DNA of 64,000 bases from an uncultured Armatimonadetes bacterium (GCA_963717145.1 OY970325.1:4224001-4288000), one strand, 5' to 3'. Shown: positions 45,182 to 50,018, counted from the first letter of the stretch. The notes: generated by a model from the sequence alone, not told the origin. Numbers and translations are program-made.

Positions 45182-45290
45182 CCCCTCCTTACGAAGGAGG
45201 GGCCGGCCAGCAGGCCGGGGGAGGTTCGCGTGCCGATACCCTGGCAGAAACCCCCTCGGCCCAGAGGCCGGTCCCCCTTCGTAAGGGGGA
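45182..45290. repeat. Inverted pair of CCCCTCCTT-type palindromes between convergent genes
   Basis: cccctccttacgaaggaggggccggcc ... ggccggtcccccttcgtaaggggga. Confidence 0.7.
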
Positions 45291-45303
45291 CATCCCGGAT
45301 CGC

Positions 45304-48300
45304 TTATACCGACAGCCCCACGAAGAGCCGGGCGTCGATGCTGGTGAGCGGATCGACCTCTCCATTCGCGGCGGCATCGGCGAAGACGATGCCCGGGTAC
45401 TTCGCCCTCATCGCCCGATCGAGGACGTTGAACCCCTTCGGCTCGGCGTACTCCCGGACTCCGTATGCCCCGCGAAGGGTTTCCAGGGCGATCTCTCCGA
45501 GGCCTTCGCGGGCGCTCGGGACGAGAGCGAACATCTCTTCGGATGTGAGACCTTCCGCCAGGCCATGCCGGATCGGGATGCCGTCCTGCGTGCCGGTCGA
45601 TCCTACGAGCCTGACCAGCCAGCGCATGTTCCCCCGCGCGCGGCTCTTCACCGCGAGCATCTGAGGCCCGAGATCGCAGCTATCGAAGTCGGTCCAGGCC
45701 CCCAGTGCTTCCTCGAGCGCGGCCGAGTACTTCTCCCACTCCTTCGGGTCGCCGCTCTCCGGCATCGCGGGCCGATGGAGGCTCTCCCCGACAAATGGGC
45801 TGAGTGACGCTCCGGACTCCTTGGCTACACGGAGGCCGAGGTCGAGCAGCTTATCGGAGGTTTGGAGCATCCGGTCGATTCCGTCCCTCTCAAGGATATC
45901 GGTTAGTGTGTCGATGATCGACTCGCGGGTGACGTATCCCTCCGGGATGGCGATCTCCACGCCGGCGATCTGCTCGATCTCTCCTAGATCGGTCATGCTC
46001 AGGGCGGCCGAGCCCCCACAGCGCCTCGAAGCGAGGGAAGATCAGCTTCGCCAGGGATGGGTCTCGGCGCAGGTGTCCGGCGATCGAGAGCTTCTCCCCG
46101 GCCTCCTTCTGGCCTGCCTCGGTGAGCGGTAGGAACACCGCAGCATGGTCGCCGTCGAAGTCTCCGTTCACCAGCATGCACGCCAGCGGGTGAAGCCTGA
46201 TCGTGCGGTCGCCGCTTCGTACCGGATGGAACGCCAGGAGCGCGGTCGGCATGAACGTCGGCGAGCGGTTGACAAGCACCCACGACCGGGCCATGGTCGC
46301 GTCCAGGGTCTGAGTCGCTCGTTCGGACCGAGCCTCTACCTCCGACATGTCCATTTCGCGGGCGACGAGCGGTCCGAAGATCGCCCATGCGATATCATCC
46401 GCCAAGCCGACCTGATCGGTCCGCAGACCGACTCCCGGCGAGAGCACGGTTCGCCCGCTGAAGAGGATCGGCTGGTGGAACCGCAGGTTCTCCGGCACGA
46501 GCAGCAGATCGAAGTAAGCCCTGACCGCCGACTCGAGATCGCCGTACGACCTCTGCCTGAGGCTTTCGGGAGCGCCGCTTGAGATCATGCGGGCTATCTT
46601 CGTGTTCGCCTCGACGAGCGTCGCCCATGTAGGAGGGGGTTTCCGGTCTACCCCGACCGTGGGCGCACCGACCTCCTCCAGCATCCTCTCGGGCAGCCAC
46701 GGATGCGGGACCGGGCATGCCAAGTTGAGGACTTCCCCTTCAGGAGAAGCGAACCGGAATGCCAGTCTGCCATCCTCCAGTTGAGTATGGATGCCGCCCG
46801 CTGCCAGACGCTCGGCGACCTCAGTGAAATCCGGGGTGGGGGGACCGGCCTGTTCGATCGGGCCGGACACCACTCGTTCCGCGAACGACTCCGCTCCCTC
46901 GCGTTCAGTGGACCGCGTGTTGAACTGCTCACGGATGTTCTCGAATGCGCCGACATCGCGCATGGCATAGTACTCATTCTCGCCCTGCCTGCACACTGGT
47001 TCGCCGGGCCTGGTTCCGATGAAGAGCTTGCTGTGGGCGAGGTGGACTGTCTTGCCCCAGTAGACATAGCCGACTGTGCTCGGACGATCGAGCTTCCGGC
47101 CGCCTTTGCCAAGCGTCAGAGTCTCCATCCCGCTCTCGGGCAGACCGGCCTTCACGAGCCGTTCCCTGATCTCCTCAGCCTTAGGGGCGTGGAAAGGCGG
47201 GGCAATGAACGGCGTCCCTTCCGCACGAGCGATCCGGCCGGCGACCGCCTCCCGCACGACGCCGAAGATCAGCCGCGTGTGGAGCGCGATGAAGTTGTAG
47301 ACCAGTTCGACCGGCGTGCCGTCGGGCAGATGAGGCATCCCGTCGTCGGGGACGATGCGGCTGATGCAGCCCTTCGCGCCATGCCGGTTGGTGATCTTGT
47401 CGCCGGGCTCGAGCGGCCTGGGGTAGCCGAGACGCTTCGCCGCCGATTCGCTGATGAGGATGCCGTCCTCGAAGGTATCGCGGCCCCAGGAGACGAACGC
47501 GGTGAGGAGGTTTCGCCCGCACCAGAATCCCGGTGCGCTGAACTCGTTGCCGGTCTGAACGAGCGCAGGCTCGGGTCCGGAGCGACCACCCACTGGCGCA
47601 TCATGTTCACGCCCATGAGGATCCGGGTCGAATCATCGTGCTCCAGGAACGGGACCAGAGAGGCGACCATACCCAGAGCGGCTTCCGGCCGATCATCTAC
47701 GATAACCAGTCTGCTATCTCGGATCTCCGCGCCGACCGCGACGGAGAGCACGCGCCCGACGTTGGGGCCTTCCGGCGTCTCGAACGGGCAGACGCGCCCG
47801 AAGTGCGAGGGAGTGATCAGCTTCTCCCGAGTTGGGATGAGCAGCCTGCGGGAGTGGGTCACGGTCGCCAGGCGGTCGGTCTTGTCGAGCCACTGACCGA
47901 TCCCATCCACGGCTTCGGCGACCCAGGTGTCGAGGGGGAGCCACGATCTCATCAGCGCCTGGTCGAAGGTGACGTCCTTTGGGGCCTCGCCAAGGCGCTC
48001 GCCGACGTAGTCGTAGAGCTGTTCGCCGACGCACTTGATATCGGCGGTGTCCAGGTACTCGTTCGACGCGACCGGCAGCACGATCATATGCCCATCGCGG
48101 ATCTGAAAGATGCCCCATTCATCCGGGCGAAGGATCTCATACTCCATCTCGGCATCGCCAACGGTGACCTCCAGCCGGCATGTGTACTCGTCACATTCGG
48201 CCTGGTAGCCGGAGAGCGGCAGGCGGTCAGCCAGCAACTCAGGCAGGCGCTCGTTGATAAACCGGTCATAGGATTCCCTATGCCAGGGTGTAGCAATGTT

Positions 48301-48312
48301 CAATGTCATCAT
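45304..48312 (-). CDS. Miniature single-chain RpoB-RpoC fusion (two-barrel RNA polymerase-like, ~1,002 aa after correcting two compensating indels)
   Basis: Collinear beta motifs (HFGRVCPFETPEGPNVG, PFLEHDD..R.LMG.NM.RQ, FEDGILISE, GDK..RHGAKG, TVGY.Y..K..H) followed in the same ORF by beta' motifs (SGR.V, NRSPT, NGDFDGD, SRARG, EGL..E.F....AREGL); 3009 nt from start to stop; indels near 47574 and 46008. Confidence 0.9.
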
Positions 48313-48887
48313 GATTCCTCCCATTCGCGTTCGAGGTTTCTCCATTCGCGAGCGAGACGCTTTCTGGCATAATGCAGGCGCGATTTGACCGTTCCCTCCG
48401 GCACGCCGAGCGCCTCGGCGACCTCCTGGATCTCCATCTCGAACTCGTGGACCAGCCGAAGCACCTCCCGCTTGTCGGCGGGAAGCTCCTCCACCAGCGC
48501 TCGAAAGAGCCTGTTCCGCTGGGCCAACTCGACCGCTTCTTCCGGACGAAGCGCGTCGGCCTCGTAGTCATGCTCTTCCGCAGAGAATTCCAGGGGCGAT
48601 TCCCTCCTGCGGCGGACGGTTCGGAGGTAGTTCAGCGCCGTGTTCGTGGCAATGCGCAGGATCCAGCCGTTGAGCGACCCTCGTCCGTCCCACTGATCGG
48701 CGTGCGTCCACACTCTCAGCAGGACCTCCTGGGTCAGGTCGCGGGCGGCGTCCGAGTCACGGATGATGTCGCGGAGTCGGAGGGTGATCGCCCTCTCGTA
48801 TCGTGCGGCAAGCGCATCGAACGCCTCGGGGTCACTCCCGGCGATCCGTGACATCAGTTCCGCATCGGACAGATCGTGCATAGCCAT
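48309..48887 (-). CDS. ECF-family sigma70 factor
   Basis: Region 2 DLTQEVLLRVW..WILRIATNTALNYLR; region 4 EVAEALGVPEGTVKSRLHYARKRL; stop overlaps the next start (ATGA). Confidence 0.95.
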   Translation of the reverse strand: MAMHDLSDAELMSRIAGSDPEAFDALAARYERAITLRLRDIIRDSDAARDLTQEVLLRVWTHADQWDGRGSLNGWILRIATNTALNYLRTVRRRRESPLEFSAEEHDYEADALRPEEAVELAQRNRLFRALVEELPADKREVLRLVHEFEMEIQEVAEALGVPEGTVKSRLHYARKRLAREWRNLEREWEES

Positions 48888-48911: not shown

Positions 48912-48938
48912 TGACACCGGGGAGCGGGCGGGGGTTCA
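48912..48938 (-). promoter_or_regulatory. Putative ECF-type promoter upstream of the sigma gene
   Basis: Minus strand TGAACC, 16 nt, TGTCA; matches the general ECF AAC..GTC pattern. Confidence 0.5.
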
Positions 48939-49054: not shown

Positions 49055-49759
49055 TTAGTCAGCTATGTCAGCCGGTCTGATCGAGCTGAACCTTGATTCA
49101 TCTTGAAGCATTCTGCCGAACGCCTGCATAAAGGTCTTGATACTCTGCACGACTGGCTTATCGTACTCCGTCAGTTCCTCTCTGACCCGTTTGGAAAGAG
49201 AGGAGTGTGGTTTGTAGAGAATATCGTGTTCGATCTCGCGGTAACGGTCAAGAATCCAGGGCACTACCTGGATCTCACAGACACACTGCAGTCCGAATCT
49301 GGGCGGAATTGGAACGCAATACTGAAGCTGATCGACCTCATCCACGTAGGAGCTATAGGGCTTGTTCCCACGGGCCGGTTTATGATCCTCAGTGCAGGAA
49401 GGATATGCCTTCTTGATAACATCATGCACATTCTTCAAGTAGGAGTTTGGGCAGACCTGTACCTTCACTCCCGCCATATCTGTCAAGGAGCCAAACGTGT
49501 AATCATCTAGTCTTTCAGGGTCGAAGAAGTTGCCTTCCTGCCGCTGCTGGAGCTTGGCAGACGCGCTGTCGAATGACTTGACTCTGCCGACAATCTGGAT
49601 GCGTTCAAAGGGCAAGAGCTGCGACCGCAGCCCAAGCAATCTATACTCCAAGGTGGCCTTGACTATGTCAACAGCATTCGCATACATACTGACGTTCGCT
49701 TGGTATTCCATCAGCAGCCTGTTCTGCACCAAGGTTGAAGTATCATCGGCTGTCAACAT
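49055..49759 (-). CDS. RelA/SpoT synthetase-domain protein (small alarmone synthetase-like, degenerate)
   Basis: GRVKSFDSASAK (RxKxxxSxxxK), TDMAGVK (DxxGxR-like), CEIQV, REIEHDILYK. Confidence 0.8.
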   Translation of the reverse strand: MLTADDTSTLVQNRLLMEYQANVSMYANAVDIVKATLEYRLLGLRSQLLPFERIQIVGRVKSFDSASAKLQQRQEGNFFDPERLDDYTFGSLTDMAGVKVQVCPNSYLKNVHDVIKKAYPSCTEDHKPARGNKPYSSYVDEVDQLQYCVPIPPRFGLQCVCEIQVVPWILDRYREIEHDILYKPHSSLSKRVREELTEYDKPVVQSIKTFMQAFGRMLQDESRFSSIRPADIAD

Positions 49760-49763
49760 GCGA

Positions 49764-50018
49764 CTAGGTAGCTTCCGTTAGCAGTTTGCCAAGTTCATTC
49801 TGGAGGGTCAGGGAAGGCGGTCTGTTGAAGTAGAACTCCCAACCATGTTTCCGCTTGGGTGCGAGAACCATGTCCGCGAGCTTGTCTGGATGATCCTCGA
49901 CGTACTCCAAACTGAAGCATTTCATGGTGACGCGGTTGACGAAGACATCCCTGTCGAAGAGGTAGCGGTACCCCTGCTGCTCAAGAAAACGTATAGACTC
50001 GCGTGTTCTCGGATCCAT
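49764..50018 (-). CDS. Small hypothetical protein (84 aa)
   Basis: GGAGG upstream; ends 4 nt before the RelA/SpoT-domain gene. Confidence 0.7.
   Translation of the reverse strand: MDPRTRESIRFLEQQGYRYLFDRDVFVNRVTMKCFSLEYVEDHPDKLADMVLAPKRKHGWEFYFNRPPSLTLQNELGKLLTEAT

Follow-up and report, generated by a model that had tools for sequence, protein, structure and literature searches.

A sigma factor paired with a half-size single-chain beta-beta' protein: a putative two-gene transcription module in an uncultured bacterium

Bacteria are classically viewed as having one RNA polymerase core, which is re-targeted by exchangeable sigma factors. Here we describe a minus-strand locus (45304-48887) in a 64,000-nucleotide stretch of the genome of an uncultured Armatimonadetes bacterium (GCA_963717145.1, OY970325.1:4224001-4288000; hereafter the window, from whose first letter positions are counted), in which a gene for a sigma factor of the extracytoplasmic function (ECF) type is followed by a gene for a fused beta-beta' protein of ~1,000 amino acids, the mini-polymerase. 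The nearest architectural analogue, likened by its published description, is K2ORF6p, the large subunit of the RNA polymerase of a yeast linear plasmid (pGKL2, a virus-like element). K2ORF6p is a reduced beta::beta' fusion of ~980 amino acids, from which around half of the canonical sequence is deleted; lid and rudder are likely missing and the clamp coiled-coil is reportedly absent, it needs a small second subunit with the beta' C-terminal regions (ORF7p), and it relies on upstream conserved sequence (UCS) promoter elements and no sigma factor (PMC2919709, PMC6211774). In 2018 this fusion was termed unique among RNA polymerases (PMC6211774). K2ORF6p is eukaryotic, plasmid-borne and of proposed viral origin, whereas the mini-polymerase family is found on bacterial chromosomes, keeps the coiled-coil and has no conserved third gene.

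A functional precedent is YonO, from the Bacillus prophage SPbeta, a single chain of ~100 kDa with both barrels and without trigger-loop homology, which is an efficient, processive and error-prone DNA-dependent RNA polymerase (PMC5467207). The mini-polymerase is likewise a single chain with both barrels and no detectable trigger loop. Nevertheless, YonO is prophage-encoded and shares few catalytic residues with beta and beta', whereas the mini-polymerase family has housekeeping neighbours and matches Rpb2_6 and Rpb1_2 strongly; in fact, the strength with which it matches bacterial beta/beta' in Pfam, NCBIfam and PDB places it outside the YonO-like class, with its remote similarity and prophage context. 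No partner factor is known for YonO (PMC5467207), whereas the mini-polymerase has a dedicated sigma gene.

In the fusions of the Helicobacter/Wolbachia type (NF011417, NF007172), beta precedes beta' in one chain, as here. These are, however, housekeeping enzymes of ~2,800-2,900 amino acids, whereas in the host of the mini-polymerase the canonical rpoBC is a distinct locus flanked by rplL and rpsL, and a mini-polymerase orthologue scored only 198 and 151 bits against these models (cut-offs 4632 and 5372). The multisubunit-type RNA polymerases of phages (jumbo phages, and Caudovirales with deep-branching beta/beta') are also accessory two-barrel enzymes encoded outside the housekeeping operon. 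In IMG/VR, all 80 loci examined match at no more than 119 bits and none has a sigma match; the 40 with listed open reading frames (ORFs) all hold split ORFs of ~1,000 amino acids or single ORFs of ~1,200-2,200 amino acids. There are no phage genes around the window locus. Other fused polymerases of intermediate size do exist: several IMG/VR contigs (L134, L135 and L137 among them) carry single ORFs of ~2,000 amino acids spanning beta and beta', and the ESM Atlas holds unnamed clusters of 1,221-1,787 amino acids with Rpb2_6 and Rpb1_2, some also with Rpb1_5.

A second rpoB paralogue, giving two RNA polymerase forms per cell, was described in Nonomuraea and other actinomycetes (PMC5431353), but this is a full-length beta that assembles with the normal subunits, and it is neither fused, pruned nor sigma-paired. 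A full-text search of the literature, excluding subscription journals and supplements, yielded no published description of a ~1,000-amino-acid bacterial beta-beta' fusion or of an ECF sigma factor paired with one, in agreement with an earlier note on the window, whose author knew of none. The terms 'Rpb', 'beta subunit' and 'RNA polymerase subunit' do not appear in the main text of the ECF reclassification (PMC7826278), whose supplements may list the neighbours of this sigma group. The mini-polymerase belongs to the two-barrel RNA polymerases, and a sigma-paired, half-size bacterial fusion is, as far as we could find, an undescribed combination.

Architecture and conservation of the mini-polymerase

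Three overlapping minus-strand ORFs, 47269-48345 (ORF1, 358 amino acids), 45890-47593 (ORF2, 567 amino acids) and 45304-45996 (ORF3, 230 amino acids), lie 3' of the sigma ORF (48309-48887, minus strand, 192 amino acids). The earlier note had read RpoB and then RpoC motifs in them, with which Pfam agrees: ORF1 matches Rpb2_3 (E 3.4e-10), and ORF2 matches Rpb2_6 at residues 57-190 (E 1.4e-30) and then Rpb1_2 at residues 437-499 (E 6.2e-15), while ORF3 gave zero Pfam matches. Since both Rpb2_6 and Rpb1_2 match ORF2, the passage from beta to beta' falls within a single open frame, as had been proposed. In alignment, the three pieces tile six intact homologues (1,002-1,042 amino acids) end to end with no material lost, and intact orthologues among relatives have open frames of 1,024, 1,027 and 1,066 amino acids (990-1,100 in most of the phylum), which bears out the single fused protein of ~1,002 amino acids that the note had anticipated. 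Its ATG overlaps the sigma stop codon in the tetranucleotide ATGA (48312-48309, minus strand), again as noted.

The first piece (47575-48312, 246 amino acids) comprises a family-specific N-terminus and the beta fork region, alignable from E. coli beta residue 443 onwards (Rpb2_3, GRVCPFETPEGPN, LEHDD..MGVNMMRQ). It ends at frame break 1 (47573-47575), where a CCC run lacks one base that intact homologues have (APDP|EPALVQ). The second piece (46010-47572, ~520 amino acids) holds the beta barrel (FED, GDKITNRHGAKG), the beta C-terminal part, the junction, PVPHPW, the clamp coiled-coil, FSGRTV, NRSPT and NGDFDGD, as located by Pfam (Rpb2_6, Rpb1_2) and hhalign. Frame break 2 (46008-46010), where the sequence has one base more than its homologues (EALWGL|AALSMTD), leads into the third piece (45304-46009, ~235 amino acids and the stop codon), which carries SGAS, SRARG, the bridge helix and the family-specific C-terminal motif PG.VFA.AAA.GE.DPL..SRLFVGL. 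All pieces are on the minus strand. The catalytic NGDFDGD, with its three Mg-binding Asp residues, was read at 46148-46168, just where the note had put it. Its wider claim, that the catalytic-core residues are kept, stands for NGDFDGD and for GDKITNRHGAKG (GDK..RHG.KG) and holds only in part in one detail: in the window translation, the stretch after 'VHLAHSK' does not retain the canonical 'MHAR' residues, which we take to be the E. coli motif there.

Alignment of the family profile with E. coli K-12 beta (hhalign) covered residues 443-1342, of which the family lacks 833-1057 (the flap) and a number of shorter stretches. The corresponding alignment with E. coli beta' covered 266-789, including the clamp coiled-coil (266-309), YSGRSV, NRAPT, NADFDGD, SGAS, SGARG and the bridge helix, with residues ~310-335, presumably the rudder by the E. 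coli landmarks, absent from the family. Nothing aligned to beta 1-442 or to beta' 1-265, the latter holding, as we assume, the zipper and the zinc finger. The family C-terminus aligned with beta' 725-796 at a probability of 91.5%, and a long helix, residues 982-1014 of a structural model (below), stands at the bridge helix. No trigger loop is detectable, because no alignment continues after beta' ~796, only ~50-60 residues follow and none of 22 members has Rpb1_5; trigger-loop homology is thus undetectable, and a functional substitute may exist. The C-terminal GE.DPL..SRLFVGL was considered as a counterpart of beta' region H, but hhalign gave no support and the assignment was dropped. As a single chain of ~1,000 amino acids, the protein departs from the canonical alpha2-beta-beta'-omega core, with its separate full-length beta and beta' subunits bearing flap, lobes, zinc finger, rudder and jaw. 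The equivalents of E. coli beta Q513, D516, H526 and R529 are kept according to hhalign, and that of S531 is a Leu in the closest relative, G001, which belongs to the same family (L100 residues 152-160); the window has the same motif, THSRRLLIP, at ~47850-47880. We take S531L to be the classic rifampicin-resistance change.

An AlphaFold2 (AF2) model of the intact G001 orthologue, built with 52 sequences, predicts with confidence a single-body fold (predicted local distance difference test 92.9, predicted template modelling score 0.90), in which the sole disordered part is a lineage-specific insert (208-249). The best PDB matches of this model in Foldseek were bacterial beta and beta' chains (E 1e-23 to 1e-20). 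Two of its helices, 613-631 and 636-657, form the equivalent of the beta' clamp coiled-coil (E. coli beta' 266-309), which the hhalign of the family profile places at 46499-46633 (minus strand) in the window.

Among 178 full-length family members, which make up our conservation set, the three residues of the Asp triad are kept in 176, 176 and 175. In GDK..RHG.KG, the Gly, the Asp and the Arg (NRHG) are invariant (178/178 each), and the Lys of GDK, the His and the last Lys are found in 170, 172 and 157 members, respectively; the Arg of NMxRQ is present in 177. This conservation is the pattern of an enzyme, and, judged by sequence, the mini-polymerase would be an enzyme and not a relic, with purifying selection over its whole length. 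In Pfam scans of 22 members only three domains appeared, Rpb2_6 and Rpb1_2 being found in all 22 (best E 1.5e-39 and 2.8e-24).

Homologues with this condensed architecture, whose absence would have spoken against the family, are in fact numerous. A HMMER scan of 1.84 billion representatives with ORF2 returned 197 proteins at E<=1e-30. None of the 134 matches ranked above the first protein of canonical size has more than 1,110 amino acids: 65 have 940-1,110 and match continuously across the junction, and the other 69 are shorter. A search started from the full-length homologue P0002 gave 674 matches at E<=0.001. Among the 120 matches listed, lengths are 857-1,067 amino acids, PF00562 and PF00623 occur together, usually with PF04565, the names, where given, are 'hypothetical protein' or a string of three Pfam domain names, and the source labels include Anaerolineae, Chloroflexi/Chloroflexota, Ktedonobacteraceae and Hydrogenedentes. 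The gene is patchily distributed: it was found in 6 of 60 relatives, in 31 of 400 other genomes of Armatimonadota and in 1 of 201 genomes of the phylum of a metagenome-assembled genome labelled Chloroflexi, and the same query did not find it in five named genomes of other groups. The window genome most likely belongs to Armatimonadota as well, its enolase sharing 91% identity with one that bears this label. No curated family names the mini-polymerase: NCBIfam gave only far sub-threshold rpoB and rpoC matches, PHROGs only generic beta and beta' families and the PDB sequences only canonical beta and beta', and no defence family of PADLOC-DB 2.0 matched. Among the genomes listed, carriers have 3.2-9.9 Mb, most of them more than 4.5 Mb, and 20 close-relative non-carriers have 2.4-4.5 Mb; the related genomes in this comparison are not independent.

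The sigma factor and its promoter motif

The protein encoded at 48309-48887 matches Sigma70_r2 (6.3e-13) and Sigma70_r4_2 (1.3e-15) in Pfam and TIGR02937 at 107 bits (cut-off 42.9), and by these profiles it is an ECF (group 4) sigma factor of ~190 amino acids with regions 2 and 4 only. Against PADLOC-DB 2.0 it gave only weak CARF-labelled matches (E 5.5e-4 to 6.6e-3). The Chloroflexi group ECF271 was considered and is not evidently the group of this sigma factor, since ECF271 reportedly pairs with Zn-binding anti-sigma proteins (PMC8999054).

A sigma orthologue (42-80% identity) lies directly upstream of the mini-polymerase gene in all 24 genome loci with upstream DNA; five further genome loci are cut by contig ends and stand outside this count. 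Sigma-profile matches of at least 260 bits are confined to the 7 of 61 genomes in which the mini-polymerase is present, and the next best match has 147 bits, so that the sigma factor forms a dedicated orthogroup. Metagenomes scanned with an N-terminal alignment specific to the family yielded 80 loci, 68 of them with at least 650 nucleotides upstream. The sigma gene is adjacent in 56 of these 68 and one gene away in two more; an additional ORF (380 amino acids in L216, ~280 in L238) stands between sigma and polymerase in those two. The sigma match ends no more than 35 nucleotides from the polymerase start in 47 of 64 loci. The mini-polymerase is the only conserved neighbour of the sigma factor, as no third gene, and in particular no adjacent anti-sigma gene, is conserved at the loci. 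The coupling to an ECF sigma factor proposed in the earlier note is therefore strong, although not universal. When the complex of the sigma factor with polymerase residues 1-800 was predicted, in a run without controls, the three scores (mark 0.32) were 0.52, 0.17 and 0.17, which speak neither for nor against the pairing.

Upstream of the sigma gene, a GAAC-N15-17-GTGT dyad was found in 25 of 25 genome regions, and its fuller form, tGAACc-N14-cGGTGTC, precedes the inferred sigma start codon by 31-50 nucleotides in 24 of the 25 genome loci (in L115 the estimated sigma start is off and the motif match overlaps it). Among the metagenome loci, a looser form with GYGT as second box is present in 50 of 58, or in 45 of 50 unique sequences, and several others have variant boxes. 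In the window the motif reads TGAACC-N14-CGGTGTC (48913-48938, minus strand, ~50 nucleotides 5' of the sigma start codon). We infer that the dyad is a promoter; with a -35 box of the GAAC type and a -10 box of the GT/CGT type, it would be an ECF-type promoter, putatively used by the adjacent sigma factor itself. No sigma-70-type promoter was found upstream of the sigma gene on its own strand.

A nearly identical site occurs in a ~1.2-kb repeat, present in 10 copies (C1, e.g. 3600510, 3914256, 4171887, 4172954, 179751, 384951), which is IS3-like by reading of its 321-amino-acid ORF. The site, TGAACC-N14-aGGTGTC, lies inside and antisense to this ORF, matching at 12 of 13 positions with exact spacing. 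Apart from the operon's own, no site in the genome comes closer to the motif, but this one is probably a chance match multiplied by copy number.

Proposed mechanism and competing explanations

On the observed architecture, conservation, sigma linkage and promoter motif, we favour the reading of the locus as a sigma-dependent single-chain RNA polymerase, that is, a self-contained two-gene transcription module, for which sigma binding, DNA-dependent RNA synthesis and autoregulation are predicted; we give it a probability of roughly 55%. The first gene would encode the dedicated ECF-type sigma factor and the second, translationally coupled to it, a single polypeptide of ~1,000 amino acids made of a pruned beta (fork region, catalytic barrel and C-terminal part) and a pruned beta' (clamp coiled-coil, NADFDGD barrel and bridge helix). 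Made in step with the enzyme from the overlapping genes, the sigma factor would dock through its region 2 on the clamp coiled-coil, and the resulting miniature holoenzyme would open TGAACC-N14-CGGTGTC promoters, that of its own operon first, giving positive autoregulation. RNA would be made on DNA by two-metal chemistry, without flap, rudder or trigger loop, and therefore probably with low fidelity and no proofreading, as in YonO. As for the biological role, our guess is an orthogonal or back-up transcription channel. The broader proposition, that several phyla carry a second, autonomous beta/beta' chain of ~110 kDa which forms a holoenzyme with an ECF-type sigma factor via the coiled-coil and initiates at TGAACC-N14-CGGTGTC without alpha, omega, flap or trigger loop, we hold more tentatively, at somewhat under an even chance.

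In canonical RNA polymerase, the beta' clamp coiled-coil is the dock of sigma region 2 and the beta flap that of region 4. That the coiled-coil was kept, although the rudder, the flap and most of the clamp were lost, suggests that a protein partner still binds there. Several observations nevertheless weigh against the reading as a self-contained module. The full canonical sigma-core interface cannot form, because the flap is deleted, and in the hhalign register the coiled-coil has other residues at the counterparts of E. coli beta' R275 and E295, which we take to be sigma70-binding residues; this altered surface would fit a private interface and proves nothing. The sigma factor resembles ordinary ECF sigma factors and might just as well work with the host core. 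The promoter motif is not enriched genome-wide: chance predicts 6.4 strict matches and 6 are found, of which the one at the operon alone is spaced by N14. In four of five other carrier genomes the motif is about as frequent as the reversed-pattern control, the exception being G001 (10 against 2), so no regulon is visible beyond the operon's own promoter. In 10 of the 68 metagenome loci there is no sigma gene in the upstream DNA examined. These fall into two groups of kin sequences, which are not independent (L226/L228; L255-L258, L260, L265, L269 and L270), and both keep an intact mini-polymerase gene together with the coiled-coil, the loss of which had been looked for in these lineages, a result that does not discriminate. 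Moreover, no contig of the three soil-metagenome runs used to check the assembly spans 47573-47575, leaving frame break 1 unsupported by reads.

Some of these points would be explained if the sigma factor directed the host core to the operon promoter and the mini-polymerase were the regulated output, acting without sigma on other substrates, for example in the synthesis of primers or short RNAs, in RNA- or single-stranded DNA-templated synthesis, or in repair or conflict-related functions. Sigma regions 2 and 4 of the ordinary ECF kind, an enzyme lacking the canonical region-4 dock, the lack of a promoter regulon outside the operon and the two lineages whose polymerase gene is not preceded by a sigma gene within the upstream DNA examined are all in keeping with such an arrangement. 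We regard it as rather unlikely, however, since the coiled-coil survived the pruning around it, the sigma orthogroup never occurs without the polymerase in the 61 genomes, stop/start overlap or near-contact of the two genes is the rule and ECF sigma factors are usually co-transcribed with the proteins that bind them. The position of the polymerase gene in the usual place of an anti-sigma gene (directly downstream and translationally coupled), the retained coiled-coil and the lack of any other conserved anti-sigma candidate would suit a decoy or anti-sigma-like regulator, in which the fused protein sequesters the sigma factor (or NusG-type factors) on its coiled-coil and competes with the host core, catalysis being secondary. 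A binding decoy would need neither near-invariant catalytic Asp, Arg and Lys residues (170-178 of 178) nor purifying selection over the whole length of a 1,000-amino-acid protein, which makes this an improbable explanation.

The deposited sequence has two frame breaks, so the window copy could also be a recently inactivated pseudogene of a functional family, with both indels real, or an assembly artefact. The host genome is a single contig of 5.37 Mb. As the earlier note had asked to be confirmed, it has a separate canonical rpoB-rpoC (C1:~2465800-2474160), lying between the L7/L12 (rplL) and S12 (rpsL) genes. Compared with full-length fused reference proteins, this rpoBC shows ~10-11 frame changes over 8.3 kb, one of which may be the natural rpoB/rpoC boundary. 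An essential operon cannot be that broken; the assembly therefore carries many indel errors, and frameshifts anywhere in this genome are suspect. The two breaks of the mini-polymerase gene sit in a CCC run and in a GG dinucleotide, and alignment of the pieces with homologues showed no stop and no lost material besides the shifts. Contigs from three soil-metagenome runs of one study are 90-99% alike to the window and so come from relatives, not necessarily from the same strain; those spanning 46009/46010 all lack one base there (X1 depth 12.6/12.6, X2 20/20). Of the two corrections proposed in the note, both are thus supported by the tiling of homologues and the one at 46009/46010 by contigs as well, which the one at 47573-47575 lacks; this gap at the first site and the kinship distance at the second are what the pseudogene explanation can draw on. 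The ratio of non-synonymous to synonymous substitution rates (dN/dS) relative to the G001 orthologue, whose 1,066-amino-acid frame is intact, is 0.17, 0.17 and 0.20 for the three polymerase pieces and 0.19 for the sigma gene, at variance with the decaying rpoBC remnant that the note had allowed for. Nor is the locus likely to be a chimera, since the window and G001 share the gene order NIF3-like gene, sigma, polymerase, 869-amino-acid gene. From these comparisons both frame shifts are very probably assembly errors, and inactivation or artefact of this copy has a slim chance; the reality of the shifts concerns only this copy and not the family.

If the favoured reading holds, a conserved and selected half-size core with its own sigma factor would amount to a natural deletion experiment on RNA polymerase, revealing which parts are dispensable for promoter-directed transcription (flap, rudder, lobes, zinc finger, trigger loop and the alpha/omega scaffolds). 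The question of the minimal multisubunit-type polymerase would become directly testable with two genes, which would also offer synthetic biology a compact orthogonal sigma/core/promoter set. As an autonomous holoenzyme, it would be smaller than any other sigma-dependent, promoter-specific RNA polymerase known to us. Should the sigma factor serve the host core alone, a catalytic beta-beta' mini-enzyme that is widespread among bacteria of soils and sediments would still be a new player.

Surroundings of the locus

In the window, the locus is surrounded by common genes of the chromosome (for enolase, pyruvate kinase, NIF3, subunits of NADH dehydrogenase and a cell-surface amidase), so that the absence of a ribosomal or phage context reported in the earlier note is upheld. 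A Rfam scan of the window gave zero RNA families. Directly after the polymerase stop codon, a GC-rich hairpin, GTCCCCCTT-N4-AAGGGGGAC, occupies 45271-45291 (strand unassigned); it has no T run, and a simple terminator scan made no call there. This palindrome is repeated in 46 copies genome-wide, and the soil-run contigs show very high depth and fold-back joints at 45250-45294. It is a repetitive extragenic palindrome (REP)-like element and may serve as a T-less terminator.

The minus strand at 49055-50018, which separates the NIF3-like gene from the sigma promoter, carries a RelA/SpoT-like ORF (234 amino acids; PF04607 at 26 bits, cut-off 27) and an 84-amino-acid ORF of no known family. Both are absent by tblastn from the 20-kb G001 locus. 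The 48-50 kb bin has the second lowest GC content of the window (0.567), after that at 54-56 kb (0.563). The two ORFs may have been inserted recently as a pair built around a small alarmone synthetase, perhaps a toxin-antitoxin type system.

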